A stretch of DNA of 64,000 nucleotides from an uncultured archaeon (GCA_964540145.1 CAZILS010000001.1:277540-341539); one strand, 5' to 3'; positions 8,066 through 52,450 are shown, numbered from the stretch's first letter. The notes: a model not told the origin generated them from the letters alone. Program-made: numbers and translations.

Positions 8066-8518
8066 ATGGCGAAGAAAGGATACGGGAACCACCGCACTTT
8101 TGGTCAGTACGCTGCCGACCAGCTTGCAGAATGGGCGGGCTCATGGACATTCATAGCCGGGTTTGCGCTTTTCCTCGTTGTGTGGGTGGCACTTAATTCA
8201 TACTGGATACTTTTTCACACATGGGACCCCTATCCGTTTATACTTCTCAACCTCTGCCTCTCATGCCTTGCCGCAATACAGGCCCCTATCATCCTTATGA
8301 GCCAGAACAGGGCAGCCGAGAGGGACAGGGCCGTGGCGCAGCGCGACCACTACGTAAACAGGAAAGCCGAGAAGGAGATAAAGACACTGCAGAAGCACAT
8401 TTTTGAGATAAAGGAAATACTTTCCAAGCAGCCGCAGACAACCCACATAAAGGCGCTCGAAGAAGAGATAAGGCACATCGAAAATGAGATGTCGGAAACC
8501 CTGCATTACCACATTTAG
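8066..8518 (+). CDS. DUF1003 family membrane protein
   Basis: WDPYPFILLNLCLSCLAAIQAPIILMSQNR motif, followed by a C-terminal coiled coil. Confidence 0.7.
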   Translation: MAKKGYGNHRTFGQYAADQLAEWAGSWTFIAGFALFLVVWVALNSYWILFHTWDPYPFILLNLCLSCLAAIQAPIILMSQNRAAERDRAVAQRDHYVNRKAEKEIKTLQKHIFEIKEILSKQPQTTHIKALEEEIRHIENEMSETLHYHI

Positions 8519-23061: not shown

Positions 23062-23826
23062 ATGTTCGCTTTCCCTTATTTTCGCATGGAGCCCTATCTC
23101 GGGAGAACAGGACGATATTGGGAACTTGATTTTATTAGGGGGCTTGCGGTCATAGCAATGGCCCTCTTCCACCTCCTCTTTGACCTCAACTATTTTGCGG
23201 GGCAGTCCTTCAGCCTTGACTCCGGCATCTGGTTCTTCGTGGGGAGGTTTTCGGGCACAGCATTCATCTTCCTTGCAGGGGTTTCTCTAACCCTGAGCTA
23301 TTCCCGAGTTTCGGGTCTTTCCCAAAAACAAATCAACTCCGGTTTCCTAAGGAGGGGACTGAAAATATTCCTCTATGGGATGGCGATAACAGTTTTCACC
23401 CTCCTCGCTTTCCCGCAGGAGACAATCCTTTTCGGGGTTCTCCACCTCATAGGCCTATCGATAATCCTCTCGGCGCCCTTTCTGAAACTCCGGGGGAAGG
23501 AGAACCTCTTTCTGGGCACAGTAATTATTGTTCTTGGATTAATCGTTTCAACAATGCGCTTCGGTTTCCCCTGGCTTCTCTGGCTTGGCCTAACCCCCTT
23601 AAACTTCATTACTTTCGATTACTTTCCATTGCTTCCCTGGTTCGGCCTTGTGCTCCTCGGGATATTCTTCGGCAAGTTATTGTATCCGCGGGGAAAAAGA
23701 AAAATTGAAATCGTGGATTTTTCAAAATCTATTTTGGTTAGAGCCGTGTGTTTCATCGGAAGGAATTCCCTGCCAATTTATTTCCTCCACCAGCCGATAA
23801 TTGTGGCAATAATCCTGCTTATTTGA
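23062..23826 (+). CDS. DUF1624 / heparan-alpha-glucosaminide N-acetyltransferase-like membrane protein
   Basis: ELDFIRGLAVIAMALFH N-terminal motif. Multi-TM protein. Confidence 0.65.
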   Translation: MFAFPYFRMEPYLGRTGRYWELDFIRGLAVIAMALFHLLFDLNYFAGQSFSLDSGIWFFVGRFSGTAFIFLAGVSLTLSYSRVSGLSQKQINSGFLRRGLKIFLYGMAITVFTLLAFPQETILFGVLHLIGLSIILSAPFLKLRGKENLFLGTVIIVLGLIVSTMRFGFPWLLWLGLTPLNFITFDYFPLLPWFGLVLLGIFFGKLLYPRGKRKIEIVDFSKSILVRAVCFIGRNSLPIYFLHQPIIVAIILLI

Positions 23827-24673
23827 CGGGGACTTTCGCAAGAACTTCTTTGAGTTCATCTGCCGCCTTTGCCCCTGTTTCAAGAACAGGGGTGAGCAAA
23901 ACAATCGCGTCAACAACCCCCCTGTCATAGCTAATTTTTCCCGCCAGTTTTTCACCGGCAAACTTTTCTATCTTTTCGGAAAACCCGGGGTTGATATCCC
24001 ACCGGTTTATTATTATGCAATAGGGCACCTTGAAATGGTTCACGACCGTAAGCACACGCTTCAGGTCGCTAAGGCCGCTCGGGGTGGGCTCGGTAACAAG
24101 AACCGCGTAATCTGTATTGACCACTGCGGCATTTACCGTGCAGCCTATCCCTGCGGCGGCGTCCAGCACCATAACCTCGTGTTCTCTCCTGTCCGCTTCC
24201 TTCCTAACCTCCGCAACTATCTTCCCGCTGCACCTCTCCCCCGGAAAGAGTTTCCCTGAAATGAGCGGGAAATCCAAATCCTTCTCGTTGGACTGCACAA
24301 GCCCGTTGTAAACCTTCCGCATGTTCACGGTCCCTGCGGCAGGGCATACAATCTTGCACACCTCGCAGCCCTCGCAGAGCAGCCTGTTCACGGCATATTT
24401 CCCCTCTTTTTTCTCGATAGCACCGAACCTGCATTTTTGGAAACACCTCCCGCACGCTATGCACGTTTCCGCATTTATTTCCGCCTTTATGCTCGTCGAA
24501 ACCTTCCTCTCGTTTTCAAAAGTATTCACGCCCAGCCACAGGCCAAGGTTCGCGGCATCAACATCGCAGTCGACCGCAACAACTTTTTTTTCCTTGGACA
24601 GGAGAAGCGCAAGGCTGCTTGCAACCATGCTTTTTCCAACACCCCCCTTGCCCCCGGCAACAACCACCTTCAA
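23819..24673 (-). CDS. MinD/ParA-type P-loop ATPase with inserted 2x[4Fe-4S] ferredoxin domain
   Basis: P-loop GGKGGVGKS. Two ferredoxin motifs, CIACGRCFQKC and CEGCEVCKIVCP. Confidence 0.85.
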   Translation of the reverse strand: MKVVVAGGKGGVGKSMVASSLALLLSKEKKVVAVDCDVDAANLGLWLGVNTFENERKVSTSIKAEINAETCIACGRCFQKCRFGAIEKKEGKYAVNRLLCEGCEVCKIVCPAAGTVNMRKVYNGLVQSNEKDLDFPLISGKLFPGERCSGKIVAEVRKEADRREHEVMVLDAAAGIGCTVNAAVVNTDYAVLVTEPTPSGLSDLKRVLTVVNHFKVPYCIIINRWDINPGFSEKIEKFAGEKLAGKISYDRGVVDAIVLLTPVLETGAKAADELKEVLAKVPVK

Positions 24674-25494
24674 AGCAGCCCCTCCAGCCCTTCCAATTTT
24701 CCCTTGGAGTATGCCTCTATAACTTCCCTGCTATAGGGAATTTCAAACGAAATTTTTGTTTTGTGTTTTTTCGCAAGCCGGTAAATGAGTTTTTTATCCC
24801 CGACAGTGCTCTTGTTCACCACGATTTCCGCCGGCACCCCCATTATCCCAATCAGCTCAAGCATCAGCCCCAAATCATATTCCCCCAAAGGGGTTGGCTC
24901 GGTGACCCCGAAAATTTTTTCAGAACCAACCAATGCGCTTATTACCGAGCAGTGCATTCCCGCGGCGCTGTCAACAATAATGAAATCCGCCCTTTCCCTC
25001 TCCGCAGCCTTGTCTGCAGCAGTCTTTGTTTTTGAAACAACCCGGCTTGTTTCTGCCAGGCCCTCCCTACTTCTCCCGCTAACGAGGAGAATGTTCTTAT
25101 TTATCCTGTTCTCAAAAACCTCCCCGACCATTACCTCTCTTGCGGAGATTGCGCCCTGCGGGCACGCAACAAAACAGGCGCCGCACGCATCGCACAAATT
25201 GTCGAAGAACTCGGGCTGTTTTCCGCTTGCCCAAAATATTGCGTTCCTTGTGCACGCCTTTGCGCACATCCCGCACTTAACGCATTTTCCTTTATCTGCT
25301 TTTGGATAGTCCAGCGTTATTCCCTTTCCGGATTTGAGTTCCTTTCCCAGCAGCAAATGGCAGTTGGGGCATTCGACATCCGCGTCAACCAAAACAACTT
25401 TTTTCCCTTCCTTTGCAAGCTTAAGCGCATAAAGCACGGAGAAAGTGCTCTTTCCCGTTCCCCCCTTGCCCCCTGTCACCGCAATCCTCTTCAC
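24670..25494 (-). CDS. MinD/ParA-type P-loop ATPase with inserted 2x[4Fe-4S] ferredoxin domain (paralogue)
   Basis: P-loop GGKGGTGKS. Ferredoxin motifs CVKCGMCAKAC and CDACGACFVACP. It overlaps its neighbours by 4 nt. Confidence 0.85.
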   Translation of the reverse strand: MKRIAVTGGKGGTGKSTFSVLYALKLAKEGKKVVLVDADVECPNCHLLLGKELKSGKGITLDYPKADKGKCVKCGMCAKACTRNAIFWASGKQPEFFDNLCDACGACFVACPQGAISAREVMVGEVFENRINKNILLVSGRSREGLAETSRVVSKTKTAADKAAERERADFIIVDSAAGMHCSVISALVGSEKIFGVTEPTPLGEYDLGLMLELIGIMGVPAEIVVNKSTVGDKKLIYRLAKKHKTKISFEIPYSREVIEAYSKGKLEGLEGLL

Positions 25495-26258
25495 AGCGAG
25501 GGCCTCCTTTTCCTGGTTTCTTCAATATCAAGCACCTTTACCTCGGGCCTTTCCTTATCGTAGATTGAAATCGCATTAAGGCCCCGTCTCCCGAACTCCC
25601 CTTTGATTTCCATAATCTCCTTCATCCCAAGGGGTTTTTCCCTGCTTGGCCGGTATGGCGTGTTTATCTCCACCTCGTCCGGCATTATATCCATGGCAAG
25701 CTCCGCAATTTCGCCTGCCCTGTCCCTGTTCCTTTCAAGGAACATGCACTGCAGCGCAAACTTTCCCTTAAACCCTTTCCTGAATTTCTTGATTCCCACA
25801 AGGGTGTTTTCAAACGTTATTCCCTTAACAGGAACATTTATCTCTTCAAACAGTTCCTGGTTTGGCGCATCAAGCTTCGCAACAACCTCATCAGCCCCCG
25901 AAAGCTCCCTCCGCACATCCTTCTCCCCCAGAAGGCTTGAGTTTGTCAGAACCGCAATCGGCAAATCAGTTAGGCGCTTCGCAATGCCGATGCACTCCCC
26001 GATGTTTTTTGCGAGGGTGGGCTCCCCGCTCCCGGAAAAGGTCACGATGTCGGCCTCCGCAAGTTTCAGCGCATCCTCAAGGCTTTTTTCCGCCTCCGCA
26101 CTCTCCACAAACAGCCCCCTCTCCGCTGTTTTATTTATGGTTTTCCCAAGCTGGCAATAGGTGCAGTCGAAACTGCATGCCTTCGGCCCGCAGATAAGGT
26201 CAATCCCCAAACTCCTGCCAAGCCTCCAGGATGCAACAGGCCCATAAACTGTTTTCAT
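25491..26258 (-). CDS. Radical SAM protein (small, 255 aa)
   Basis: CSFDCTYC (Cx3Cx2C) follows an N-terminal YGPVASWRLGRSLGIDL motif. A GSGEPTL SAM-binding motif is present. Confidence 0.8.
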   Translation of the reverse strand: MKTVYGPVASWRLGRSLGIDLICGPKACSFDCTYCQLGKTINKTAERGLFVESAEAEKSLEDALKLAEADIVTFSGSGEPTLAKNIGECIGIAKRLTDLPIAVLTNSSLLGEKDVRRELSGADEVVAKLDAPNQELFEEINVPVKGITFENTLVGIKKFRKGFKGKFALQCMFLERNRDRAGEIAELAMDIMPDEVEINTPYRPSREKPLGMKEIMEIKGEFGRRGLNAISIYDKERPEVKVLDIEETRKRRPSL

Positions 26259-37413: not shown

Positions 37414-37605
37414 TCAATGCATTTCTGTAAAGATTGTTTTGTTTTTGAAAAGTCTTTGCCGGTTAAATCTCCGTAATTGCATTAGTTCGATTGATTGCTT
37501 TTTTCCAAGTTCTGGCAATTCTCCTTGTTGCCAGCCTGTGTCAAGCCTTTTCTCGTTGTCTATTGTTGTGCCATGAACAAAATAGGTTATCTTACTGGTT
37601 CTCAT
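37414..37605 (-). pseudogene. N-terminal fragment resembling a histidine-phosphatase (phosphoglycerate-mutase-like) family protein
   Basis: 63-aa ORF. ITYFVHGTTIDNEKRLDTGWQQGELPELGKKQ resembles the xRHGxTxxN...GW N-terminus of the family, with the Arg replaced. It is truncated after about 45 homologous residues. Confidence 0.3.
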
Positions 37606-38605
37606 TTAATCGTTTCTTCACTTTTTTCAACAGTTTTTCAATTATGAGTTTCTTGTTTTCTTTTATTACCTCTTCTATTTCTTTTGCTCTTTTTTCCAGG
37701 CAGGAAACCACAAACTTAGTGAACTTATAATACTGTTTTGATAGCTGGACTCTTTCAAGCAATACAATGTAGCTCTGCCTGTTTCCCAAATTGATTATTG
37801 CCCTTGGAAAGCCTTCTTTTTGCAGTGCCCAGTTCAGTATCTCTCTTCCTGCCCTGCCGTTTCCGTCTCTGAATGGGTGAATGTGTTCAAATCTTGCGTG
37901 GAACTCCGAAGCCAATTCAATAATATGTTTTTTACCTTTTTTGTGCCATTCAACCAGTTTTTCCATCTCTTTCTCCACGTCTTTCGCTTTAACCGGTTTT
38001 ACTTTTGACGCCTGGATGAATATCGGCCCGTCCCTGTATTCGCCTGGCTTTTTGTCCTTGAAGCCGTCCATTATCGCAGCGTGAATCTTCCTGATGCCCC
38101 TTTCGTTCATTTCTTTTATCTTACCCGAAACCTTTGCTGCTTTTTTCATGTTTTCGATTTCTTTTATTTCATCAAGTTTTTTTCCCGCTACTGATGCGCC
38201 CTTTGTCAGGACAATGTTTGCTTCCTGCAAACTCAAAGAATTCCCTTCAACCGAAGCGCTTCCCTGCGCATACCTTACAAACTCGTCTTCCTTGAATGAT
38301 TCAAATCCCTCCGGAAAAAAGTCTTTCATTATTTTAAAATCAACTTTCAGTCTTTCAAGGGCCAGCAGGTCAGAAAAGGACAAAACATTCAAATCAAATT
38401 CCTTTTGGCTTTTCTTCGCGTTCTCCAACGCCTTTTTTCTTATCAGTTCATCAAATGCGTTTTCTGTTTTTTCTTCCACTTGCGTTTTGTTGCCGAGAAA
38501 GAAACTAACCCGTTTACCATCTATTCTGTCCTCTAAGTAAAAGTAGTCTTTTCCTTTGATTTTGCGTTTTGAAACAAACATACAATATTTAACACCAGAA
38601 AACAT
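37592..38605 (-). CDS. Fic/DOC family protein (probable AMPylase) with N-terminal inhibitory helix motif
   Basis: Fic core HPFRDGNGRAGR. SASVEG matches the (S/T)xxxE(G/N) autoinhibition motif and lies upstream of the core. Confidence 0.85.
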   Translation of the reverse strand: MFSGVKYCMFVSKRKIKGKDYFYLEDRIDGKRVSFFLGNKTQVEEKTENAFDELIRKKALENAKKSQKEFDLNVLSFSDLLALERLKVDFKIMKDFFPEGFESFKEDEFVRYAQGSASVEGNSLSLQEANIVLTKGASVAGKKLDEIKEIENMKKAAKVSGKIKEMNERGIRKIHAAIMDGFKDKKPGEYRDGPIFIQASKVKPVKAKDVEKEMEKLVEWHKKGKKHIIELASEFHARFEHIHPFRDGNGRAGREILNWALQKEGFPRAIINLGNRQSYIVLLERVQLSKQYYKFTKFVVSCLEKRAKEIEEVIKENKKLIIEKLLKKVKKRLNENQ

Positions 38606-41166: not shown

Positions 41167-41221
41167 CCTATCACCCTGAATATTATATTTTCCCAGTTTA
41201 AAAGTCTTTGGGAAGCAATAG

Positions 41222-41406
41222 AGCTCCGGGCGGGATTTGAACCCGCGACCTGCGGATAGCTTTGCCATAAGCGTAAGCCGGACGGAAAGCCCCGCCTTTC
41301 AGTGCGGGGCAGGATGGTTGAGCCCAAAAGGGCGAAACCAGACCCGCGCCAGCCGCGCGTGACGGCGTACAAGTCCGCCGCAATAGCCAGGCTATGCTAC
41401 CGGAGC
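41222..41406 (-). tRNA. tRNA-Thr (UGU) with 110-nt intron at canonical position 37/38
   Basis: Exon 1 is 41406-41368 (GCTCCGG-TA-GCAT-AGCCTGGCTA-TTGC-G-GCGGA-CTTGTA). Exon 2 is 41257-41222 (A-TCCGC-AGGTC-GCGGG-TTCAAAT-CCCGC-CCGGAGC-T). The intron is 41367-41258. The discriminator U matches the other tRNA-Thr in this window. Confidence 0.8.
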
Positions 41407-41478
41407 CGCAATTGCACACTAATTGGCGGGAATAATGTTTAAATTCCCTTGCCTTTGCCCTCCGGGCAGGGCAGAACC

Positions 41479-42564
41479 CTATTCAAAGAACTTGTGGTAT
41501 GTGGTGTGCAGGAGCTTCTTCGCCTTCGCACTGCCCGGCTTCCCAAGGAAGTCCTTGTACAGCTTCTTAACCGAGGGGTTTTCCGAGGCTATCCTCTTCT
41601 TTTTCCCCTTGTCAATCCTGTACAGTGCGTCTTTCCTCTTTTCAATTATGTCAAGGGTTGTCCTCGGCTGGCCCGCGCCCCCCACACACCCGCCGAAACA
41701 CGCCATGCATTCTATGATGCCAAATTCCTTTACTCTTTCAGCGTCATTCAATAACTGCGAGGCATACCTCAACCCATTTATCACCGCAACCTTTATTTTT
41801 TCCTTTCCAATCCTGACTTCGGCCTCCTTAATCCCCTCAAGACCCCTTACCTCCCTGAACTCGATAATCCCAACCGTTTTGCCGGTTATTTTCGCGGCAA
41901 GCCTCAGCACAGTTTCAAGAACTCCGCCTGTTGCGCCGAAAATATTTGCGGAGCCTGTCGATTCCCCCAGCAGGGAATCAAATTTGCTTTCCTTAGCCTT
42001 CTTTAGGTCCAGCCCCCTTTGCTTCAGCAACCCCGCAAGCTCGACTGTTGTAAGCACCTTGTCAACGTTCCTCCTGCCTTCAACCCTTAGCTCGGGCCGC
42101 ATCGCCTCCGCCTTCTTGATTATGCACGGCATTACCGAAACAACATAAATATCCTCCGGCTTCAGCTTCTTCTTCTGCGCAAAGTATGTTTTTATCAGCG
42201 CGCCCATAACCTCCTGCGGGCTCCTGCAGCTGCAGAGGTTATCAACGTATTCGGGGTGGGTGTGTTCGATGTAACTGACAAAGCCGGGGCAGCACGATGT
42301 CATTATCGGCAGCTTCCCCCCCTTCTTTTTCCTCTCAAGGAATTCGTAGGTTTCCTCCATTGTCACTATATCCGCGCCTGTGCAGGTGTCGAAAACAGCG
42401 TCAAACCCGAGTTCCTTCAAAACCCCAACCAGTTTCCCTGTAACAATTTTTCCCGGCTTATAGCCGAACTCCTCCCCGATGGAAACCCTCATAGAGGGCG
42501 AGGTCTGCACAACAAGGAATTTCTTCTTCGAGTCAAGCTCCTCAACCACTTTTTCAAAGCCCAT
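41479..42564 (-). CDS. hydA: [FeFe]-hydrogenase catalytic subunit, H-domain only (minimal form)
   Basis: H-cluster motifs TSCCPGF (L1), VMPCIIKKAEA (L2) and ECMACFGGCVGGAGQP (L3), plus FGATGGVLE and VRGLEGIKEAEV. There are no N-terminal ferredoxin-type Cys motifs. The ORF track gives 41479..42738. I prefer ATG 42564 (361 aa) because a TATA box lies about 20 nt upstream and the longer form overlaps the divergent gene. Confidence 0.85.
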   Translation of the reverse strand: MGFEKVVEELDSKKKFLVVQTSPSMRVSIGEEFGYKPGKIVTGKLVGVLKELGFDAVFDTCTGADIVTMEETYEFLERKKKGGKLPIMTSCCPGFVSYIEHTHPEYVDNLCSCRSPQEVMGALIKTYFAQKKKLKPEDIYVVSVMPCIIKKAEAMRPELRVEGRRNVDKVLTTVELAGLLKQRGLDLKKAKESKFDSLLGESTGSANIFGATGGVLETVLRLAAKITGKTVGIIEFREVRGLEGIKEAEVRIGKEKIKVAVINGLRYASQLLNDAERVKEFGIIECMACFGGCVGGAGQPRTTLDIIEKRKDALYRIDKGKKKRIASENPSVKKLYKDFLGKPGSAKAKKLLHTTYHKFFE

Positions 42565-42606
42565 GTCCAATATATGGAAACTATTATATAAAAGATTGAC
42601 GTTATT
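42565..42606. promoter_or_regulatory. Compact bidirectional promoter with palindromic TATA element (ttatataa)
   Basis: The 42-bp gap between the divergent starts at 42564 (-) and 42607 (+) has TTATATAA centred in it, about 18 to 20 nt from each ATG. This is consistent with two leaderless archaeal transcripts. Confidence 0.5.
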
Positions 42607-43170
42607 TTGGAGATGCCGAACAAGGATTATTTTGTTTCCGTTATGGGCCACAGGCTTACCCTTGAGGACCGGTTCAAGAACGTTGAGTTTTTCATTTATT
42701 CGGCGATGGTTTTCCTCGTGCCGTTCTTTTTTGGGCACATCCAGAGCCTGCCGAACCAGTTCGTCGTGGGGAGCATAGTGAACTGCTGCCTCGCCCTTGG
42801 CGCGCTTTACCTCGGGATGCGGAAAGTCCTCCCTTTAATCGCCCTGCCGAGCATAGCGGCTTTCCTCACAGGGGTTATCTTCGGGCCGGAGAGCCTTTAC
42901 CTCCTTTATCTTATGCCGTTCATCTGGCTCGGCAATGCGATTTTCGTTTACACAATAAAGCTGCTTAAGCTCGCAAGGGGAAGCAACTATGCACTCTCCC
43001 TTGCTTGGGCAGCGGCGGGAAAGTCAATCTTTTTGCTCGCGGCAGCATTCGCCCTTGTCAGCCTTGCAATAATCCCCATACAGTTCCTCTTCGCAATGGG
43101 CCTGCTCCAGCTGGCAACCGCCCTTACAGGGGGGGCAATGGCCGGCACAATCTATGTTCTGAGGAGATAG
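42607..43170 (+). CDS. Hypothetical integral membrane protein (5-6 TM)
   Basis: 187-aa hydrophobic protein. Its stop is 1 nt before the next gene. No family firmly recognised. Confidence 0.55.
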   Translation: MEMPNKDYFVSVMGHRLTLEDRFKNVEFFIYSAMVFLVPFFFGHIQSLPNQFVVGSIVNCCLALGALYLGMRKVLPLIALPSIAAFLTGVIFGPESLYLLYLMPFIWLGNAIFVYTIKLLKLARGSNYALSLAWAAAGKSIFLLAAAFALVSLAIIPIQFLFAMGLLQLATALTGGAMAGTIYVLRR

Positions 43171-43171
43171 C

Positions 43172-43426
43172 ATGTTCCCCGATGTCATGCTTGTAATGGT
43201 AACAGACAGGAAAAAATCAGCATTGAAAATCCAGAAAGCACTTACAAAAAGCGGCTGTGCAATCCAGGCGAGAATAGGCCTGCACGAAACCACAAAAACA
43301 TGCTCGAACGCCGCGCTCATGGTACTCCAGCTTGCGGGGACAAAGGCGGAAACTGCGGAGCTGAGAAAAAACCTGAATGCCATCGCAGGGGTAAGGGCAA
43401 AGCTCTTCGACCCAAAGAAGTTCTGA
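43172..43426 (+). CDS. Small ACT/NikR-C-like protein resembling the TM1266-type putative iron-only hydrogenase system regulator
   Basis: 84 aa. VMLVMVTDRKKSALKIQKALTKSG..IQARIGLHE....AALMVLQLAGTKAETAELRKNLNAIAGVRAKLF follows the beta-alpha-beta-beta-alpha-beta pattern and the xxGRxGxP / LxxKLxxIxGVxxK positions I remember for that family. The assignment is from memory. Confidence 0.45.
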   Translation: MFPDVMLVMVTDRKKSALKIQKALTKSGCAIQARIGLHETTKTCSNAALMVLQLAGTKAETAELRKNLNAIAGVRAKLFDPKKF

Positions 43427-43437
43427 AAGTTGCTATT

Positions 43438-45036
43438 ATGATTCCCGTTGAGCTTATTTTCACGGTAATTTCCAGCCTGATACTTTTCCTTTACGGGATA
43501 GAGCACTTCAGCAGCAAGATACAGCAGATTGCGGGGGGCAATTTCAGGGCGCTTCTCGGAAGGGCAACCTCCAACAGGGTTTCAGGCGCGCTCCTTGGGG
43601 CAGCCGCAACCGCAATAACCCAGTCAAGCACCGCAATAACCGTAATTGCGGTAAGCCTTGTCAATTCAGGAACCATTTCTTTCGCCCAGAGCTTAGGGAT
43701 AATCATAGGGGCAAATATCGGAACGACAGTTACCGCGCAGCTCGTTGCGTTCAAGCTCACCGCATTCGGCCCTGTTTTCATTGCCCTCGGTTTCCTCCTC
43801 GACTTGTTTGGGGGAAAGAAATACAGGTTTCTTGGCAAGCCGATATTCTACTTCGGCCTTGTATTCTTCGCCCTCAATATGATGTCCTCCACAATAGCGC
43901 CGCTGCAGGACGACCCTTTCATAGATTCGCTTTTCGGGCACACAAGCAATGTCCTGGTTGCGCTCATTGTGGGAACACTCTTGACAGTGCTGTTCCAGTC
44001 GAGCTCTGTCACAACAGGTCTCATAGTTGTTTTTTCAATGGGCGGCTTCCTTTCAGTGGGGCAGGCCATACCCCTTCTCCTCGGCGCGAATATAGGGACA
44101 ACCGCAACCGCGTTCATAGCCTCCTCAAGGATGGGCCTTTTCGCAAGGAGGTCCGCGATGGCGCACTTCCTGTTCAATGTCGGAGCCGCCGTAATCTTCC
44201 TGCCTTTCCTCGGGGTTTTTGCCGCAGGGGTTTCCTCTTTCGGCGGGACTGTCGCGCAGCAGGTCGCAAACGCCCACCTCATATTCAATATTATTGCCGC
44301 GGTAATTTTCCTCGCTTTGATAAACCCCTTCAGGGAACTTGTGGAGAGGATAGTCGGGGGCGAGGAGAAGGAAATACTTTTCGAGGCGAAATACCTGGGC
44401 AAGGAACTCCCGAAGGGCAATGTTAAGGCGCTTTCCGCAATAGAAAAGGAACTCGGATATTCCATGGGCATAACACTCGAGCTTCTCGACGACTCGATGG
44501 ATGTGCTTGAGACAGTTTCCAAGGAACTTGAGGACAGGGTGTTGAAGCTCGAGAAACTGAACGACTACCTTGATGAGGCGGTTGGGGCCGCGATATTCCG
44601 CCTCTCAAGGAGAAAGCTGACAGAAGATGAGGCAATGCGGACAACACTCCTGATACGGATATCGAATGTGATTGAGAGAATAGGCGACAGCGGCAAGGAC
44701 ATCGCGGAGATTGCCATGGACGTTGCGGAGAACGGGAGGCCGCTGAAGCCGGAACTCGCCTCCGACTTACGGGAGTGCTACGATATGATGCGGAAAAACA
44801 TCTCGCTGCTCAAGGACAATTTCCCGAGGGCAACCGCAAAAATCGTCGATGAGATAAGGGCGAATGACAACGAGCTGCGCAGGCGCATAACGAAGCGGTA
44901 CGAGGAGCACCTTGCCAGGCTTTCCGAGGAGGGTCCGCTGTCGGACAGCACCTTCCTTGAACTGCTTTCGATTATAGAATCCTTAAACTCAAAAAACAGG
45001 GAAATAAGGAAGCTGACGGAGCAATACCCCCTATAA
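43438..45036 (+). CDS. Na+/phosphate cotransporter family protein with C-terminal PhoU-like domain
   Basis: ORF 43300..45036, trimmed to ATG 43438 (MIPVELIF...). It has duplicated TQSSTAITV / FQSSSVTTG motifs typical of NptA-type transporters and a helical PhoU-like C-terminus. Confidence 0.8.
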   Translation: MIPVELIFTVISSLILFLYGIEHFSSKIQQIAGGNFRALLGRATSNRVSGALLGAAATAITQSSTAITVIAVSLVNSGTISFAQSLGIIIGANIGTTVTAQLVAFKLTAFGPVFIALGFLLDLFGGKKYRFLGKPIFYFGLVFFALNMMSSTIAPLQDDPFIDSLFGHTSNVLVALIVGTLLTVLFQSSSVTTGLIVVFSMGGFLSVGQAIPLLLGANIGTTATAFIASSRMGLFARRSAMAHFLFNVGAAVIFLPFLGVFAAGVSSFGGTVAQQVANAHLIFNIIAAVIFLALINPFRELVERIVGGEEKEILFEAKYLGKELPKGNVKALSAIEKELGYSMGITLELLDDSMDVLETVSKELEDRVLKLEKLNDYLDEAVGAAIFRLSRRKLTEDEAMRTTLLIRISNVIERIGDSGKDIAEIAMDVAENGRPLKPELASDLRECYDMMRKNISLLKDNFPRATAKIVDEIRANDNELRRRITKRYEEHLARLSEEGPLSDSTFLELLSIIESLNSKNREIRKLTEQYPL

Positions 45037-45059: not shown

Positions 45060-45515
45060 CTATTCCATGAACTTCGCGATTACTATTCCCGCAGTCGGCA
45101 TGTATAGGATGCTCCCCACAATGGCGCTCATATGGAAACCCAATGGGTAGGCCATGCTGCTCCACACGAGGAAGATGCTTGGCAAACTGACAACTATCCA
45201 CATAAGGATGCCGAACATTTTTCCCTTTGCAATTGCGTTCCCCTTCAGCGCGGACCCCAGCCTGCAGTACACATATGCCATCGCAAACGCCAACACCCAG
45301 TACTGCGCGAAGAAAAGCACGGATATCGGGTCTTCAATAGGCCTCATCCCCCCGAGGGAGAAAATGTCATATTGCATCCCCGGAACCATATTTACTATCG
45401 CATCCGCTATCCGGGAAATCAGCAGCATCGCCAGCCCTGCGAGAACCCCCGATGTGATGAATTTTTTAGTGTTCATAAGAACCAAAACAATAACATCTTT
45501 CCGCAATTTAAGCAT
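45060..45515 (-). CDS. Hypothetical membrane protein
   Basis: 151 aa with 4 TM segments. No family recognised. Confidence 0.5.
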   Translation of the reverse strand: MLKLRKDVIVLVLMNTKKFITSGVLAGLAMLLISRIADAIVNMVPGMQYDIFSLGGMRPIEDPISVLFFAQYWVLAFAMAYVYCRLGSALKGNAIAKGKMFGILMWIVVSLPSIFLVWSSMAYPLGFHMSAIVGSILYMPTAGIVIAKFME

Positions 45516-45540
45516 TTCGCTGCACAGTTATGTAGAGAAA

Positions 45541-46182
45541 ATGCCATTTAACTGCGAAAAATGCGGCGAATGCTGCAGGCGCTACTGGATAACGGTTCTT
45601 CCGGATGAGCTCGAGAAGGAGGCGGGGTTTTTGAAAATCCCTGTTCGGGAATTTGTGAATAAATATACAAGACTCTACCTCCGCCTCTTTCCCATGCAAA
45701 GCGAGCACAGGAAACACGGTCTTGTAATAAGCTCTGCCCTGCTCCCGAAGAAAGTGGCGAGGAAGGCGGAGCACATCCTGTATGCGCTCCCAGATTTCTT
45801 TTTGGCCTTGCCCACTCTCGCCTTCAAACGCAGGGGCAAAACATGCATCTTTTTCGATGAAAAAAAAGGCTGTGAAATCCAAGAGGTAAAGCCCGAGCAG
45901 TGCTCCCTCTTCCCGGAAATCTCGATGAGCGGCACTCCTCTCAAAGAGCTATACCCTTTCTGCCTCGGCCTTAAAATCAATGGGGGGAAAAGAAAAACAG
46001 AGCTTGAGAAAAACCACTATCAAAACGTTTTCGGTTATTTCGAAAGGGTGGGGGAGGAAGGCTTCAAGAAAGTGTGGAAACACTGGCCGAAGGAAGGGAT
46101 AGCGGTCCTGAAAGGAAAAAAATTAGGGGACATTTCCGGGAAGGAATTTTTCGAGGCTATTTCAGCAACAGCTTCTCCCTGA
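45541..46182 (+). CDS. YkgJ family (CxxCxxCC) putative zinc/iron-chelating protein
   Basis: ORF 45154..46182, trimmed to ATG 45541. MPFNCEKCGECCRRYWI matches the CxxCxxCC signature. A second Cys pair lies in GKTCIFFDEKKGCEI...C. Confidence 0.65.
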   Translation: MPFNCEKCGECCRRYWITVLPDELEKEAGFLKIPVREFVNKYTRLYLRLFPMQSEHRKHGLVISSALLPKKVARKAEHILYALPDFFLALPTLAFKRRGKTCIFFDEKKGCEIQEVKPEQCSLFPEISMSGTPLKELYPFCLGLKINGGKRKTELEKNHYQNVFGYFERVGEEGFKKVWKHWPKEGIAVLKGKKLGDISGKEFFEAISATASP

Positions 46183-46744
46183 GCTCCTCAAGGTTCACGG
46201 ATGTGTCCTTGCACCCTTCCCTTAAAAGTAGAACTCCCTGCGGCGCAATCTTCCCGCCGCGAAGCGCATTCATCGCCATCTGCATCTCCGCAAAGCAGCT
46301 AACCCCCAAAACCCCCTTGTACTTCTTCTCATTGATGATTTTGTAAACCATGCTCCCCCCGGGAACAATATACAGGCCGCCGTACTTGAATTCATCCGCA
46401 AGCTTCTTTATCTTGGGGACCTGGCAACGCCCGCAGCTTGCGCACTCCCAGCCCCACTCCCCCATTTTCGCCTTGCACTTCTCCGAGTCCCTTATGCACT
46501 GCGGGACAAACAACGCCCTTTTTTTCGGGGGCACAGCCCTGAACCTAATCTCATTCAGCTTGTTCCTTATCTCAACATGCGTGTAATTAAGGAGCCTCTC
46601 GTTCAGGCCAAGCCCCATTCCGATTGCCTGGGTTGTCTTCGCGATGTTTTGATGGGCTCCGCTGTCGATAAGCTCGGCAATGGCTGCCTTGATTTTTCTC
46701 GTTAGCGGGAGCTGTTTCCCGACCTTCCGGTTCTTCGCATCCAT
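46157..46744 (-). CDS. DUF116 family Cys-rich protein
   Basis: ORF 46157..46936, trimmed to ATG 46744. LFVPQCIRD...C...WECASCGRC...IVPGGSMV...GVSCFAE matches the DUF116 pattern. Confidence 0.65.
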   Translation of the reverse strand: MDAKNRKVGKQLPLTRKIKAAIAELIDSGAHQNIAKTTQAIGMGLGLNERLLNYTHVEIRNKLNEIRFRAVPPKKRALFVPQCIRDSEKCKAKMGEWGWECASCGRCQVPKIKKLADEFKYGGLYIVPGGSMVYKIINEKKYKGVLGVSCFAEMQMAMNALRGGKIAPQGVLLLREGCKDTSVNLEELREKLLLK

Positions 46745-46973
46745 ACATACCCTTTCCCCTGCAACCGTTAAAAATTGCATGCCCGGGGCATGCTCCCAGT
46801 TAGCTTTATTAATCCCAAACCTCCATATCTGAGAAAAATATATCTGCTTTTTCCCCGATTCCGGCGCCCTTAGAATCCCTCCCGATTCCCCAAGCGCCTC
46901 CGGGGCGGAGATGCACGAGCGCCCCTGTTCAGGCAAACCTTAAATATCCCAATTGCGTTATACACTCGGTTTC

Positions 46974-49900
46974 ATGGCCGAGAACCTTTACCTTGAAAGC
47001 TGCCGCACCCTACTCGAGGGGCTTGCCGATGCGGTGGGGCTTGCCGATCTCAACGGAAACATTCTCTATGTGAATCCCGCCTTTGAGAAGGTGACAGGCT
47101 ACAAAAAAAGCGAGATTGAGGGCAGGCCTGCGGTGGCGCTCGCGAAGAAGCTGGTTGTTCCCCCGGAAGCCAAGGGTGTGCTGCAGAATTTCCGGCGCAT
47201 CCCCACAGGAAGGAACTCCAATGCCCCCTCCCAATTCAGGATACGCAGGAAAGACGGAAAAGAAATCTATGTGCTGGGCTCGGCAGGCCAAATAAGGGAC
47301 GGTGCCGGAAACCTTGTGTTCATCGAGTACTCGATGCGGGAAATAACGAATATGGTGGAAGGGGAACGCAAACTAAGGGAAAGCGAGCTGCGCTACCGAA
47401 GGCTTTTCGAAACAGCGAAGGATGCCATCCTGATAATAGATTCGGAAACCGGGAAAATAATTGATTCAAACCCCTATCTTTCCGAGGTGCTCGGCTACCC
47501 CCAAAGCCACTTTATCGGCAAGCGGCTCTGGCAGATAAGCCCGCTAAAGGACATTGCCGGGAACAAGGGCAAATTCAGGGAACTCCGGAGGGAAAAGTAT
47601 ATGCGCTATGAGTACCTTCCCTTGGAAACAAAGGCGGGAAAACGGCTTGAGGTCGAATTCGTAAGCAATGTGTATCTGGTGGGAAAAAAGAAGATTGTCC
47701 AGTGCAACATCAGGAACATAACCGAGAGGAAAAAGTCCGAAGAAGAGAAGGAGCTGAACAGCAAACGTCTGGCATCCTTTGTCAAGGACCTCAATAATGC
47801 CAACATAATGCTTTCGGAGAGCGAGGCAAAGGCAAAGGAAACCGATATCTTGAACAAGGTAATCGCCGAAACCGGCGGGGCAAAAAGCATTGACTCGCTC
47901 TTAAAAACAACCCTTGATTCCGTAATGAAGCACATGGGCTTTGAAGGGGGAGGAATTTACCTAATCGACTGGAAAAAGAGGCTTGCCGAGATGAAACTGT
48001 CAAAAGGCCTCCCCAAATGGTTTATTTCGGAGATTGAATCGCTCAGCGTTGACGCAAAGCCCTATGCCAAAATTTTCATAAAGAAGAGGCCGATAATCAT
48101 GGACAATTATGCCGGGCTTGCCTCCGCAAGGGCGAAGCGCTCCGGCTTCAAGAGCCTCGCAAGCATCCCGCTGGTCTCAAGGGGAAAGGTCCTTGGTGCG
48201 CTAAATGTCGCAAGCAAGACCCTGCGTGCCTTCACGGAAACCGAGAAAAGGCTCCTCTTTTCCATAGGGAGGGAGGTAGGCGCCGCGCTTGCGAGGATGC
48301 TCGCGGAGAATAAGATAAAGGAGGCGGCAAGGCGGATGAAGATACTGAACCAGATAATCTCCAAGTCCGCCTCGGCGAGGGACATGGAAACCCTTCTCAA
48401 GAGCCTCTCCCGCTCGACCATAAAACTCCTCGATTTCGATTTTGGCGGCGCCTACATCCTCAACAAGGAGGAGGGGACGGCCAAACTCCGCTATTCCGAG
48501 GGCATTCCCAAAAAATTCCTTGGGAAGGTCGGTAGCGTGAAAACATCGGACAAGCCTTACGATGTTGCCTTTTCCGGGGAGAGGGCCCTTTTTGTAGAGG
48601 ACTACCCCTCCTTCGACCCGGAGTTCGCGAAAGGCACGGGAATTCTTTCCGCAACCATGCTCCCGGTAAAGTCCGGCGGCAGCGTCATCGCGACACTGAA
48701 CTTCGGGAGCCGCCGAAGAAAATCCTTCTCAAACGAGGAGAGGCACATCCTCAAATCGGTTGCGATTGAGACCACGGGCGCGATTTCCAGGATGCTCTCC
48801 CGCGAGAAGCTGAAGAAGAGCGAGGCCAAGTTCAGGACTGTTGTTGAAAATGTCCGGATGCACATCGGCGCAATAGATGAATTAGGGGTTTTCACAATCT
48901 GGAACAAATATTCGGAGAAGATGCTTGGCTACAAGGGGGAAGAGGCAATAGGCAAGCTAAGCCCAAGGGAACTCTTTGAGACGGAGAAGGAGTACAGGGA
49001 GCTCCTCAAGACCGCGCGCACCGAAGGCCTCTATGACCGGGAAACCAACTTCGTCAGGAAGGACGGGTCTGTGTTCCCTGTGCACCTCATCGTTGCGCCG
49101 CGCAGGGAGGGAAAGAAAACCACGGGCTACTATGGCATTGCGGAGGACATAACCGAGAGGAAAAGGGCGGAAAATTCCCTGAGGCAAAGCGAGGAAAAAT
49201 ACAGGAACCTGGCCGAAACCCTGAATGAGGGGATATGGCTGCTTGATAAGGGCGCAAAAACAACCTTCGTAAACCCCGCACTGGCAGAAATGCTCGGCTA
49301 TTCCGGGAAGGAACTGCTCGGCACTCCGGCAGCCGACTTTCTCGACTCCGCGGGCGAGAGGAAAATGAAGGAGATGATGAAGCGCAGGAAGGCGGGCAAG
49401 AAAGACCGCTACGAGCTCGACTTCTACAAGAAAGACGGGAAGAAGATGCGTGCGCTGGTTTCCGCAAGCCCTGTGAAGGATGAAAAAGGAAATTACGCCG
49501 GCTCGCTTGCGGGGATAATCGACATCACCGCAGAGAAGGCGGCGGAGGAGGAACTGAGGAAGGCGTATGCCGAGCTTATGAAGGTTGACGAGATGAAGGA
49601 TGACTTCATGAATATCGCGGCCCACGAACTCAAAACACCGCTTGTAACGGTCATCGGCTATCTCGATATCCTGCAGAGCGGGAGGATGGGGAAGCTAAGC
49701 GAGGAACAGAAGAACTCAATCAATATCGCTTACCGCAATACAAGGAGGTTGCAGCTCCTGATAAACGACATAATCGACATTACGAAGCTTGAAAGCGGCA
49801 CCATGCGGTTTAATGTGAAAAAGTTTGGCCCTGCGAAGGCAATACTGAATGTTGCAAGCGATTTTCGGGAAAGGGCGAAGGAGAAAAGACTGCATTTGAA

Positions 49901-50366
49901 AGTCGACCTTCCGCATAAACTGAAAACGATAACTGCGGACGAGAGAAGGGTTGCGCAGGTACTGGCAAACCTTATTGACAATGCCATCAAGTTCACCGAC
50001 AAGGGCGCTATAACTATTTCAGCAAAGCCGGGGAAAAACCACCTCGATATTTCGGTAACCGATACCGGGAAGGGGATAAATCCTTCGGATATGGACAAGC
50101 TGTTTGAAAAGTTTTTTATCGGCGAACAGGTATTGCAGAAGATAGGCGGCACAGGCCTTGGCCTGGCTATCTGCAAGGGAATAGCGCTTGCCCACGGCGG
50201 GGATATCCTTGTGGGCTCAAAAAGGGGCAAAGGCTCGACCTTCACGTTTAGGCTTCCTTATACCGCAGCCGCACTGGCGCCCGGAAAGTTCGCAGTCGCC
50301 ATCCCGCAGGAAACCTTCAAAAAGAACACCGCCCTAAAGGGCGCAAAAGACGTTCAAGGCATATAG
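46974..50366 (+). CDS. Multi-PAS/GAF sensor histidine kinase (~1130 aa, no TM segment seen)
   Basis: Several PAS repeats (NPAFEKVTGYKKSEIEG, NPYLSEVLGYPQSHFIG, WNKYSEKMLGYKGEEAIG, NPALAEMLGYSGKELLG), two GAF-like segments, HisKA H-box (AAHELKTPL), and HATPase N and G boxes (NLIDNAIKF, GTGLGLAICKGI). Confidence 0.85.
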   Translation: MAENLYLESCRTLLEGLADAVGLADLNGNILYVNPAFEKVTGYKKSEIEGRPAVALAKKLVVPPEAKGVLQNFRRIPTGRNSNAPSQFRIRRKDGKEIYVLGSAGQIRDGAGNLVFIEYSMREITNMVEGERKLRESELRYRRLFETAKDAILIIDSETGKIIDSNPYLSEVLGYPQSHFIGKRLWQISPLKDIAGNKGKFRELRREKYMRYEYLPLETKAGKRLEVEFVSNVYLVGKKKIVQCNIRNITERKKSEEEKELNSKRLASFVKDLNNANIMLSESEAKAKETDILNKVIAETGGAKSIDSLLKTTLDSVMKHMGFEGGGIYLIDWKKRLAEMKLSKGLPKWFISEIESLSVDAKPYAKIFIKKRPIIMDNYAGLASARAKRSGFKSLASIPLVSRGKVLGALNVASKTLRAFTETEKRLLFSIGREVGAALARMLAENKIKEAARRMKILNQIISKSASARDMETLLKSLSRSTIKLLDFDFGGAYILNKEEGTAKLRYSEGIPKKFLGKVGSVKTSDKPYDVAFSGERALFVEDYPSFDPEFAKGTGILSATMLPVKSGGSVIATLNFGSRRRKSFSNEERHILKSVAIETTGAISRMLSREKLKKSEAKFRTVVENVRMHIGAIDELGVFTIWNKYSEKMLGYKGEEAIGKLSPRELFETEKEYRELLKTARTEGLYDRETNFVRKDGSVFPVHLIVAPRREGKKTTGYYGIAEDITERKRAENSLRQSEEKYRNLAETLNEGIWLLDKGAKTTFVNPALAEMLGYSGKELLGTPAADFLDSAGERKMKEMMKRRKAGKKDRYELDFYKKDGKKMRALVSASPVKDEKGNYAGSLAGIIDITAEKAAEEELRKAYAELMKVDEMKDDFMNIAAHELKTPLVTVIGYLDILQSGRMGKLSEEQKNSINIAYRNTRRLQLLINDIIDITKLESGTMRFNVKKFGPAKAILNVASDFRERAKEKRLHLKVDLPHKLKTITADERRVAQVLANLIDNAIKFTDKGAITISAKPGKNHLDISVTDTGKGINPSDMDKLFEKFFIGEQVLQKIGGTGLGLAICKGIALAHGGDILVGSKRGKGSTFTFRLPYTAAALAPGKFAVAIPQETFKKNTALKGAKDVQGI

Positions 50367-51017: not shown

Positions 51018-51088
51018 GCCCCAGCCCTAAAGGACTGCGGCACGTTTTGCCCCAGCCCTAAAGGACTGCGGCACGTTTTGCCCCAGCC
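51018..51088. repeat. Tandem 31-bp repeat (2 full copies plus 9-nt third copy) duplicating the tRNA-Glu 3' end and trailer
   Basis: gccccagccctaaaggactgcggcacgtttt occurs at 51018-51048 and at 51049-51079. It is followed by gccccagcc at 51080-51088, which is the acceptor 3' strand of tRNA-Glu. Confidence 0.95.
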
Positions 51089-51209
51089 GGGATTTGAACC
51101 CGAGTCTCCAACTTTCGACGGCGGTACCGGCCCTAAAAGGGCAGTATATGAATCCCGGAGGATCCGCCATGAGAGGCTGGCGTGCTTAGCCGGACTACAC
51201 TACCGGGGC
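51079..51209 (-). tRNA. tRNA-Glu (CUC) with 56-nt intron at 37/38
   Basis: Exon 1 is 51209-51170 (GCCCCGG-TA-GTGT-AGTCCGGCTAA-GCAC-G-CCAGC-CTCTCA). The intron is 51169-51114. Exon 2 is 51113-51079 (A-GTTGG-AGAC-TCGGG-TTCAAAT-CCCGG-CTGGGGC-A). The body closely resembles archaeal tRNA-Glu. Confidence 0.75.
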
Positions 51210-51462: not shown

Positions 51463-51852
51463 TTACATGTCCTCCAGTTTCCACATTATCTCAACGTCTT
51501 CCTCAATAAGATACGCGCTTGCCCCGACCATCGCATATTCCCCATCAATATAGAATCCCCAGTAGCTTGTTTCCCCCGAAGGAATCCCCGCTATCGAGGT
51601 TATGAATTCCCCCATCCCAGGATATTCCGTTGTTTCGATATCTGTCAATCCCCTCATCACGGAGATGATATACCTTCCCTTTGCAACCTCAACCGACTTT
51701 TCGAGAATTATTTCTCCCCGACCATCGATAACCACAACAGAAACATTCGTCTTTGTGCTTTTCCCGGGCTCACTTTGGCTGGTGATACATCCTGACATTA
51801 GTAACAGTGCCGTCAGGATTAGTGCGGGCAATACTGACAATTTTGAGTTCAT
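51463..51852 (-). CDS. DUF4430-like secreted lipoprotein
   Basis: ORF 51463..51990, trimmed to ATG 51852 (GGAGG 8 nt upstream). Signal/lipobox LLLMSGC. The motif ...GEFITSIAGIPSGETSYWGFYIDGEYAMVGASAY is typical of DUF4430. Confidence 0.65.
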   Translation of the reverse strand: MNSKLSVLPALILTALLLMSGCITSQSEPGKSTKTNVSVVVIDGRGEIILEKSVEVAKGRYIISVMRGLTDIETTEYPGMGEFITSIAGIPSGETSYWGFYIDGEYAMVGASAYLIEEDVEIMWKLEDM

Positions 51853-52450
51853 CCTTTTTCCTCCATAGTTTAAGCATCGGCGCCGCAAGTTTCGCAAACA
51901 CCGCATTTGTTCCTGCATGCAGCGCGGAAAACGGCAGCGAGGCAAGCATATACAAAGGCAATGCAAACAGCCCAATTCCCAGCAGGCCAAGCCCCGTAAA
52001 GAACCCGCCTATATTAACCACAACTTCGTAAAGCACAGTGCCTGCAATGCTGAGCAAAACAAGGTCCCTTGTTTTCGGTTTTTTAATTTTCCCGAAAATC
52101 CCCCCGATTATGCCCGCAGCAGCGCCCCCCAGCGCCTGGAAAATTGTCCACGGACCCTGCAAACCCCAGACCATGAAATTGGAAATTATGTAGGCGCTCC
52201 CGCCCAGCATTGCGCCCTCCCTCATGCCAAAGAGCAGCCCTGCCAAAATCGCCAGCGGAATAATCGGCTCAACACTCGGCACCATCTGCAGCGCAACCCT
52301 TCCCCCGACAGCTGCTGCAAGCAAACCCATGAAAATGGCAAACGACTTAACCTCGTTCCTAAGTTTATCGCCCTGCCATAGCTTGAGGAAAGCCTTCTCA
52401 ACGGCCTTTTTCTTCTTCTTCTGGAGCTGTTCTGTTAGGGTCTGTGCCAT
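51770..52450 (-). CDS. Membrane protein resembling an ECF-transporter substrate-capture (S) component
   Basis: 226 aa with 5 to 6 TM segments, rich in small residues. It is adjacent to a DUF4430 gene, which is a common pairing. The family assignment is tentative. Confidence 0.5.
   Translation of the reverse strand: MAQTLTEQLQKKKKKAVEKAFLKLWQGDKLRNEVKSFAIFMGLLAAAVGGRVALQMVPSVEPIIPLAILAGLLFGMREGAMLGGSAYIISNFMVWGLQGPWTIFQALGGAAAGIIGGIFGKIKKPKTRDLVLLSIAGTVLYEVVVNIGGFFTGLGLLGIGLFALPLYMLASLPFSALHAGTNAVFAKLAAPMLKLWRKKDELKIVSIARTNPDGTVTNVRMYHQPK

Follow-up and report, generated by a model that had tools for sequence, protein, structure and literature searches.

We analysed a 64,000-nucleotide (nt) stretch of DNA from an uncultured archaeon (GCA_964540145.1, CAZILS010000001.1:277540-341539), hereafter the window, in which positions 41,479 to 43,426 harbour three genes: hydA, hyd6TM and a gene coding for an 84-residue homologue of TM1266 (Table 1). 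The product of hydA is very probably a 'minimal group A1' [FeFe]-hydrogenase, functional as a monomer, from an uncultivated archaeon that itself probably belongs to the DPANN group. This reading is built on the motifs and extent of the hydA product, on its closest relatives and on the genetic context of the three genes. Loci from other contigs are designated by L numbers.

Table 1. Features of the hydrogenase locus and its surroundings (window positions)
Feature	Coordinates	Strand	Description
tRNA-Thr(TGT), 110-nt intron	41221..41406	-	Rfam tRNA match, 46.7 bits over 185 nt; ARAGORN intron option
hydA	41479..42564	-	361-residue minimal M1-type group A [FeFe]-hydrogenase; H-domain and fused small-subunit-like C-terminal domain
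divergent intergenic region	42565..42612	.	48 base pairs (bp), central A/T-rich TATA element TTTTATATAA
spurious 58-codon extension	42565..42738	-	upstream part of the mechanical reading frame, GTG start; outside the real gene
hyd6TM	42613..43170	+	185-residue six-helix membrane protein, divergent from hydA at 48 bp
84-residue ACT/NikR-C-like gene	43172..43426	+	TM1266 homologue, CPF_0552 family
Na/Pi-cotransporter-PhoU fusion gene	43438..45036	+	Pfam Na_Pi_cotrans (1.4e-56) and PhoU; 532 residues in L001
tRNA-Ser(CGA), 56-nt intron	51079-51209	-	Rfam; ARAGORN intron mode

Extent and domains of the hydA product

The mechanical open reading frame (ORF) at this position spans 41479-42738 on the minus strand and codes for 419 residues from a GTG start. 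Pfam searches with this form detected Fe_hyd_lg_C at residues 74-355 (E-value 3.5e-86, 289.3 bits for a cutoff of 22.1) and Fe_hyd_SSU in the C-terminal part (E-value 4.9e-22, 78.2 bits for a cutoff of 24). No Pfam domain was found in the product beyond these two, and no Fer4 or Fer2 domain among them. The NCBIfam models of group A hydrogenases pair with it through their C-terminal H-domain portion only (e.g. positions 211-570/571), and its scores therefore remain below the cutoffs of these full-length models.

The GTG start was rejected. The 58-residue extension that it generates contains no Cys, matches no domain and is not conserved in the homologues, and its codons run into the divergent hyd6TM gene. 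An ATG at 42564 yields 361 residues. An identical 361-residue product is on record in the protein collection, the 12 nearest database homologues have 358-375 residues (358-366 for the close relatives), and the TATA-type element TTTTATATAA at 42584-42593 has its centre 24.5 nt upstream of this ATG. Since the recorded product, the lengths of the relatives and the spacing of the TATA element all agree, these data identify the ATG at 42564 as the true start, as a first-pass annotation of the window had proposed from the promoter, and mark the 419-residue ORF as an artefact. A further ORF antisense to hydA (41423-42148, plus strand) was discarded as a shadow of the conserved coding strand.

H-cluster motifs and catalytic residues

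The best PDB match of the hydA product is 8a6t_A (E-value 6.9e-100, residues 3-358), and end-to-end alignments were also obtained with 7qv7 (HydA2 of the hydrogen-dependent CO2 reductase, HDCR), 8ryh (D. desulfuricans) and 4xdc (CpI, E-value 2.4e-87). Its identity with structurally solved catalytic group A enzymes amounts to 46-51%. In the numbering of the 361-residue form, which is used for all motifs, the L1 motif TSCCPGF at 89-95 pairs with the TSCCP of 8a6t, 7qv7 and DdH, and both the ligand and the proton-relay Cys are present. The L2 motif MPCIIKKAE at 145-153 conforms to MPCxxKxxE, and FGATGGVLE is found at 209-217. The L3 motif region CMACFGGCVGGAGQP occupies 286-300; taken from residue 285, ECMACFGGCVGGAGQP fits the L3 pattern ExMxCxxGCxxGGGQP and includes its two ligand Cys residues. 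By alignment, the H-cluster ligands are C92, C147, C289 and C293, and C91 is the proton-relay residue. Proton-path residues of the solved structures are similarly retained, as EE..E..R and SPQ, together with TSCCP, MPCxxKxxE and MxCxxGC.

The first-pass annotation had described an H-domain-only hydrogenase alignable along its whole length, with every H-cluster ligand and signature motif in place and devoid of N-terminal accessory Fe-S domains. The two Pfam domains, the alignment with 8a6t_A and the lack of Fer4 or Fer2 matches in the Pfam scan bear this description out, and no ligand Cys is lost in the structure alignments. Its remark on an unusual third motif has to be qualified: GGAGQP is present, but it is a single Gly-to-Ala substitution relative to (G/N/M/D)GGGQP, at the second of the three Gly residues before QP, with no insertion. 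The same Ala occurs in 16 of 23 minimal homologues as against 2 of 97 full-length ones. Judging from these counts, GGAGQP is the usual signature of the archaeal minimal clade and no oddity of a single gene.

Class placement and comparison with known enzymes

The nearest named relatives of hydA come from a Ca. Diapherotrites bin (68% identity), Micrarchaeota (63%) and Iainarchaeum (49%), and bacterial enzymes of 570-590 residues come next in the database search, at about 50%. The first-pass annotation had called for a phylogeny; a neighbour-joining tree of 120 homologues, which is a distance tree only, places 22 of the 23 proteins of at most 400 residues in one clade that includes this hydA. 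Among the loci that we fetched, the form of about 360 residues was found only in archaeal ones, and the bacterial HydA proteins range from 476 to 625 residues. A contig scan with the hydA protein mostly returned bacterial full-length hydrogenase loci, L003 being the only archaeal minimal locus. Another contig, L009 (JAFGCK010000098.1), is labelled as a Methanosarcinaceae metagenome-assembled genome. It is 4 kb long and codes for a bacterial-type HydA of 593 residues, a length close to those of Rikenellaceae/Bacteroidales enzymes; it is probably a mis-binned bacterial contig rather than evidence of a methanogen hydrogenase.

Very small archaeal [FeFe]-hydrogenases were recently reported, as noted in the first-pass annotation. 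The archaeal minimal group A1 class has a mean length of 363 residues and occurs in Iainarchaeota, Micrarchaeota and Nanoarchaeota (Greening et al. 2024, Cell, PMC11216029). Two members, Mu (Micrarchaeota UBA95) and Ia (Ca. Iainarchaeum andersonii), produced H2 in Escherichia coli lysate after maturation with [2Fe]adt. The full HydEFG set was present in only 5 of 130 hydrogenase-bearing archaeal genomes, and an alternative maturation route was proposed for archaea (PMC11216029). On sequence grounds, hydA belongs to this published class, and both the class and its maturase puzzle were already known. Like Mu and Ia, the hydA product is an H-domain-only, monomeric protein of about 363 residues without HydB or HydC, and that class is likewise found in DPANN-type archaea that mostly lack HydEFG, often beside hyd6TM (PMC11216029). 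The sequence itself is different, with 68% identity to the nearest named relative, and the likeness to Mu and Ia is one of class features.

Two other types of group A enzymes offer useful comparisons. The M1-type HydA1 of Chlamydomonas reinhardtii (3lx4/6gm5) has the H-domain-only architecture and the H-cluster motifs in common with hydA (E-value of about 1e-77, residues 11-251), and it accepts electrons directly from ferredoxin. However, it has 457 residues with extra loop insertions, in a host with HydEF and HydG, whereas the archaeal protein has about 100 residues less and is closer to bacterial group A enzymes than to HydA1 in these matches. With HydA1 of the electron-bifurcating HydABC complex of Thermoanaerobacter kivui (8a6t) and with CpI (4xdc), the alignment runs end to end over the H-domain and the C-terminal small-subunit-like segment. 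These enzymes carry about 210 additional N-terminal residues with three to four accessory Fe-S clusters, none of which is found in hydA, and they have Gly where hydA has Ala in the third motif. In addition, 8a6t has HydB and HydC partners, unlike hydA.

Maturases and partner subunits

We scanned all ORFs of at least 300 residues in the window, and most of those of 150-299 residues, against Pfam, NCBIfam or both. The maturase genes sought near hydA were those of the TIGR03956, TIGR03918 and TIGR03955 types. In agreement with the first-pass annotation, none of these ORFs of the 64-kb window matches a HydE/HydG-type radical-SAM enzyme or a HydF-type GTPase. The sole radical-SAM ORF (25491-26258, 255 residues) was rejected as a candidate, its matches being generic and of no more than 41 bits. 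This gene is part of a minus-strand cluster (23819-26258, about 16 kb from hydA) in which it is followed by two genes for MinD/ParA-type P-loop ATPases, both with an inserted 2x[4Fe-4S] ferredoxin domain. The window has no NuoE/NuoF-like gene that might code for HydC or HydB, and no second hydrogenase.

The lack of HydE, HydF and HydG genes in 64 kb would fit a non-catalytic relative, i.e. a sensory hydrogenase, a Nar1/Narf-like Fe-S assembly factor or an apo-protein without the di-iron subsite. Nevertheless, the catalytic signatures are all retained, including the relay Cys of TSCCP, the Lys and Glu of MPCxxKxxE and the Met of MxC. The protein has neither a PAS domain nor any other sensory one, and a Cys cluster of the Nar1 type is missing from its N-terminus, which also argues against the paralogues that the first-pass annotation had listed as a possible refutation. 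The identity of 46-51% to catalytic group A structures, the strong purifying selection on hydA (dN/dS 0.074, see below) and the activity of group A1 members once matured artificially (PMC11216029) point in the same direction. We thus regard a non-catalytic role as very unlikely.

Archaeal origin of the contig

Several features indicate that the contig is archaeal, as had been assumed in the first-pass annotation: the intron-containing tRNA genes, the presence of Pus10 and DUF2666 proteins among the products of the window, the predicted TATA-type promoter and the even GC content, which is 0.505-0.510 at the hydA locus compared with about 0.51 for the window average. Both intron-containing tRNA genes were overlooked by ARAGORN with default settings and were recovered by Rfam and the ARAGORN intron mode. 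That of tRNA-Thr(TGT) is on the same strand as hydA and follows it at a distance of 73 bp.

Could the hydrogenase block nevertheless be bacterial DNA, either contaminating sequence joined to the contig by mis-assembly or the result of a very recent transfer? The minimal clade sits among bacterial group A enzymes at about 50% identity, enzymes of the bacterial HydABC type give the best matches in the PDB and NCBIfam, and several acquisitions of [FeFe]-hydrogenases by archaea were inferred by Greening et al. (PMC11216029). However, the adjacent intron-containing tRNA gene, the predicted TATA-type promoter and the GC content all argue against this possibility. The gene order of the window is repeated in L001, an independent short assembly, and the orthologues on other archaeal contigs have a DEAD helicase, a Fic protein and a DUF1440-like gene as common flanking genes. 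Moreover, the form of about 360 residues is in no bacterial locus that we fetched. A bacterial origin of the block is thus extremely improbable.

A putative common promoter for a conserved three-gene block

The divergent start codons of hydA and hyd6TM are separated by 48 bp, and the centre of the A/T-rich element TTTTATATAA is 24.5 nt from both of them. Its core, CTTTTATATAAT, is kept together with the flanking AATAAC..CAA in the orthologous loci L050 and L054. We infer from this sequence arrangement that the region is a bidirectional promoter, giving rise to leaderless or near-leaderless transcripts. A scan of the locus for sigma-70 promoters and terminators was uninformative, as expected in an archaeon.

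The three-gene block is conserved, with different outer flanks, in L050, L054, L051 and L058-L060. Relative to L058, an orthologous locus with 88% identity, the ratios of non-synonymous to synonymous substitution rates (dN/dS) are 0.074 for hydA, 0.115 for hyd6TM and 0.039 for the 84-residue protein gene; they are approximate, because synonymous divergence is near saturation. These values indicate that all three genes are under purifying selection.

The hyd6TM membrane protein

A 4- to 6-helix membrane protein encoded beside group A [FeFe]-hydrogenase genes was reported as uncharacterised in PMC11216029, where the label hyd6TM occurs in the figure legends only. The product of 42613-43170 is identified as hyd6TM by its number of helices and the position of its gene. 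Our searches assigned it to no Pfam or NCBIfam family, 15 members of its family gave no Pfam match even at E-values up to 10, and its profile found nothing among the PDB sequences. A word-indexed search returned 15 clusters, the four with organism names being from Diapherotrites, Micrarchaeota or unclassified archaeal bins, and a full profile search collected 787 representatives at 50% identity. A DUF6580-like membrane protein of the window (51770-52450) was considered as a paralogue and rejected, with an hhalign probability of 0.7%.

The AlphaFold2 model of hyd6TM has six helices, with a mean predicted local distance difference test (pLDDT) score of 83.9. Its top five Foldseek matches in the PDB are all S-components of energy-coupling factor (ECF) transporters, namely 5edl (YkoE) and four crystal forms of TmRibU. 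The probabilities are 0.97-0.99, the template modelling (TM) scores 0.42-0.63 and the root-mean-square deviations 5-6 Å, with E-values of only 0.04-0.8. The hyd6TM protein may thus have a fold like those of ECF S-components. As in RibU, ThiT and 5edl, there are six membrane helices in the hyd6TM model, within about 185 residues, but at the sequence level no Pfam family or PDB chain resembles it. The family has invariant polar residues in its helices: Q49, N57, N108, K137, Q166 and T169.

Analyses of the genetic environments revealed that hyd6TM adjoins a hydrogenase gene in all eight other related loci examined (L003, L018, L050, L051 and L054-L057), in various arrangements. It is divergent from the minimal hydrogenase gene in L050, L054 and L051, and in L003 it immediately precedes that gene in the same orientation. 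The hydCBA operons of L055 and L056 are either divergent from hyd6TM or overlapped by it at their end; in L057, it is convergent with the gene of a 358-residue hydrogenase, and in L018, from a bacterial bin, it is near hydCBA. In a metagenome scan, a hydrogenase subunit is encoded next to hyd6TM in 48 of 80 loci. When only well-flanked loci are considered (at least 2.5 kb on both sides), a hydrogenase gene adjoins hyd6TM in 14 of 20, and none is nearby in the remaining six.

Some of the loci harbour other genes worth mentioning. In L055 (10001-12039), thiM, for hydroxyethylthiazole kinase, and a thiE-like gene come after hyd6TM in the same orientation, and hyd6TM is divergent from hydCBA. This layout is reminiscent of thiazole-transporter operons in bacteria and could indicate that the substrate of hyd6TM is a vitamin precursor. 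L065 has a hyd6TM homologue (4777-5346) with no hydrogenase gene within 4.7 kb; about 2 kb downstream (7496-9407) are Cys-rich ORFs that by eye look like CO-dehydrogenase or hybrid-cluster protein. Similar predicted permeases are encoded about 0.8 kb downstream of hyd6TM in L065 and next to it in L103.

The TM1266-like protein

The 84-residue protein gene starts after a 1-nt gap from hyd6TM. Its product scores 85.2 bits with the NCBIfam family CPF_0552_fam (NF052672), marginally above the cutoff of 85, and the orthologues of L050 and L054 score 91.8 and 95.0 bits. With the TM1266 equivalog TIGR03959, it reaches 25.7 bits, below the cutoff of 60.8. A word-indexed search returned only three proteins, and a single-sequence search of the PDB gave nothing meaningful, but a nine-sequence profile of the family found TM1266 itself (2nzc_A, E-value 5.8e-7, residues 5-81). 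The best Foldseek match of the AlphaFold2 model is also 2nzc (TM scores of 0.71-0.78), with ACT domains and the C-terminal domains of NikR ranking next. Profile and model together indicate that the protein is homologous to TM1266, within the sister family CPF_0552. The first-pass annotation had proposed a small ACT-like, TM1266-type protein co-oriented with a membrane protein gene. The resemblance and the gene orientation stand; the assignment shifts from TM1266 proper to the CPF_0552 family, and 'regulator' is an annotation label.

TM1266 of Thermotoga maritima (2nzc) is described as an 'iron-only hydrogenase system putative regulator', and in bacteria its family is tied to hydE/F/G neighbourhoods, according to the TIGRFAM description. 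The archaeal protein shares the ACT/NikR-C-like beta-alpha-beta-beta-alpha-beta fold of TM1266 and is, like it, linked to an [FeFe]-hydrogenase locus. However, its gene adjoins hyd6TM and hydA, not hydE/F/G. The archaeal subfamily keeps a Cys29/His38/Cys44 triad, which is present neither in TM1266 nor in the protein of the bacterial locus L018. The gene was found with hyd6TM only in the window, in L050, L054 and L058-L060, in L051, where it is inverted, and in L018; it is not beside hyd6TM in the other 77 metagenome loci. The main text of PMC11216029 says nothing of a TM1266-like gene beside hydA, and within the limited literature collection that we searched, we found no paper on the function of hyd6TM or TM1266-like proteins.

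A possible role of the pair in H-cluster acquisition

A more far-reaching explanation keeps the hydrogenase as described above and proposes that the hyd6TM/TM1266-like pair serves to acquire the H-cluster independently of HydEFG. In this scenario, hyd6TM would import or hand over a precursor, which might be iron, a dithiomethylamine or Fe-carbonyl-cyanide precursor, or else a pre-made di-iron unit scavenged from neighbouring cells, and the small Cys/His/Cys protein would be its binding partner or chaperone. The association of hyd6TM with minimal or HydABC-type hydrogenases (8/8 related and 14/20 well-flanked metagenome loci), its likeness to substrate-capture S-components with invariant polar residues in the helices, and the C29/H38/C44 triad added by the archaeal TM1266-like subfamily are consistent with this scenario, as is the association of the TM1266 family with hydE/F/G in bacteria. 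The adjacent pair is also found in the bacterial HydABC locus L018, within 10 kb of which HydE, HydF and HydG genes were not found. In addition, the archaea with minimal enzymes mostly lack HydEFG (PMC11216029).

Nevertheless, the whole case is one of guilt by association. Six of the 20 well-flanked loci have no hydrogenase gene near hyd6TM, and its pairing with the small gene is confined to the present subclade, L051 and L018. Maturases are also missing for the group E ultraminimal hydrogenases and for the group B enzyme of the Asgard archaeon 'Ca. P. syntrophicum'. Finally, the position of hyd6TM directly upstream of thiM-thiE in L055 suggests ordinary vitamin uptake. We therefore consider an H-cluster acquisition role of the pair unlikely. 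The same low likelihood applies to the idea that hydA, hyd6TM and the TM1266-like gene form a self-contained, co-transcribed module in which the membrane protein and its small partner provide or insert the di-iron subsite, or a precursor taken up from the surroundings or from partner cells, in place of HydE, HydF and HydG in archaea without maturases.

Other genes around the hydrogenase locus

The Na/Pi-cotransporter-PhoU gene begins 12 nt past the 84-residue protein gene and may belong to the same operon here, but it is not a conserved neighbour, as it is missing from that position in L050, L051 and L054. It is followed by a pair of genes for Cys-rich proteins, a CxxCxxCC protein (YkgJ-type, putative Zn/Fe-chelating; 45154-46182, plus strand) and an adjoining DUF116 protein (46157-46936, minus strand). 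A membrane protein of 136-151 residues with a weak DUF1440 match is encoded 1-4 kb from hydA in the window (45060-45515, minus strand) and in three orthologous loci (L050, 14368-14778; L051, 8802-9206; L054, 13043-13453); in L051, its gene immediately precedes that of the TM1266-like protein. The neighbourhood may thus include this gene as a fourth, more loosely associated component.

A ZIP-family metal permease gene is found about 1-3 kb from hydA in five related archaeal loci (L050, 7589-8356; L051, 12495-13229; L052, 11905-12669; L054, 10491-11240; L055, 4377-5117), and L052 harbours a Fur-family gene between the permease gene and hydA. The orthologue in the window (6489-7238, minus strand), with 47-50% identity, is 35 kb from hydA.

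A 1137-residue sensor histidine kinase with multiple PAS/GAF domains is encoded 3.5 kb from the hydrogenase block (46953-50366, plus strand), and in L001 a response-regulator gene follows it. Between 38000 and 40000, the GC content of the window falls to 0.429, compared with about 0.51 elsewhere. A Fic-domain protein is encoded there (37592-38605), along with several small ORFs, and the region may be a mobile or toxin-antitoxin-type islet. L050 also has a Fic gene near hydA.

Proposed function and significance

According to our preferred reading, a functional minimal group A1 hydrogenase, C92, C147, C289 and C293 would hold the [4Fe-4S] part of the H-cluster, with C293 as the bridge to its di-iron subsite. 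The canonical proton pathway would have its counterparts in C91, the E70/E71 and E74 pair, R78 and S115. Because hydA has no accessory Fe-S domains, electrons would pass directly from a soluble carrier to the exposed H-cluster. We infer that the carrier is most likely reduced ferredoxin; this donor is taken from the class alone, since we noticed no gene for ferredoxin or for pyruvate:ferredoxin oxidoreductase in the window. The hydrogenase would presumably work in the direction of H2 production and discharge fermentative reducing power. The hydA gene is predicted to be transcribed from the compact bidirectional TATA promoter, in common with the unit formed by hyd6TM and the 84-residue protein gene, whose products might constitute a co-regulated accessory module. 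Our working model is that they are a small-molecule or metal binding/uptake protein and its ligand-sensing partner.

Several observations weigh against this picture. Neither the maturase genes nor those of a ferredoxin-based electron supply were found in the window. Its biosynthetic gene content (a his operon, a LeuA-like protein and GlnA) is larger than expected for a DPANN genome, as such genomes are expected to encode little amino-acid biosynthesis. The Foldseek matches that suggest an ECF-like fold for hyd6TM have weak E-values, no link was found at the sequence level, and there is no gene for an ABC-ATPase (EcfA) or EcfT among the scanned ORFs of the window.

The present analysis adds to the known class the ECF-like predicted fold of hyd6TM, the TM1266 homology and the Cys/His/Cys signature of the small protein, the putative common bidirectional promoter, and a counted association between hyd6TM and hydrogenases. 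The 84-residue protein is related to TM1266, from the one family of small proteins that annotation already associates with [FeFe]-hydrogenase maturation loci, and the locus represents a compact candidate gene set for H-cluster assembly without HydE, HydF and HydG. If the pair were needed or enough for activation, the maturation question would be answered for the whole class; otherwise, the finding would be an ordinary one. The class itself, already described and validated biochemically, has its use as a very small H2 catalyst and provides evidence for H2 fermentation in DPANN-type archaea.

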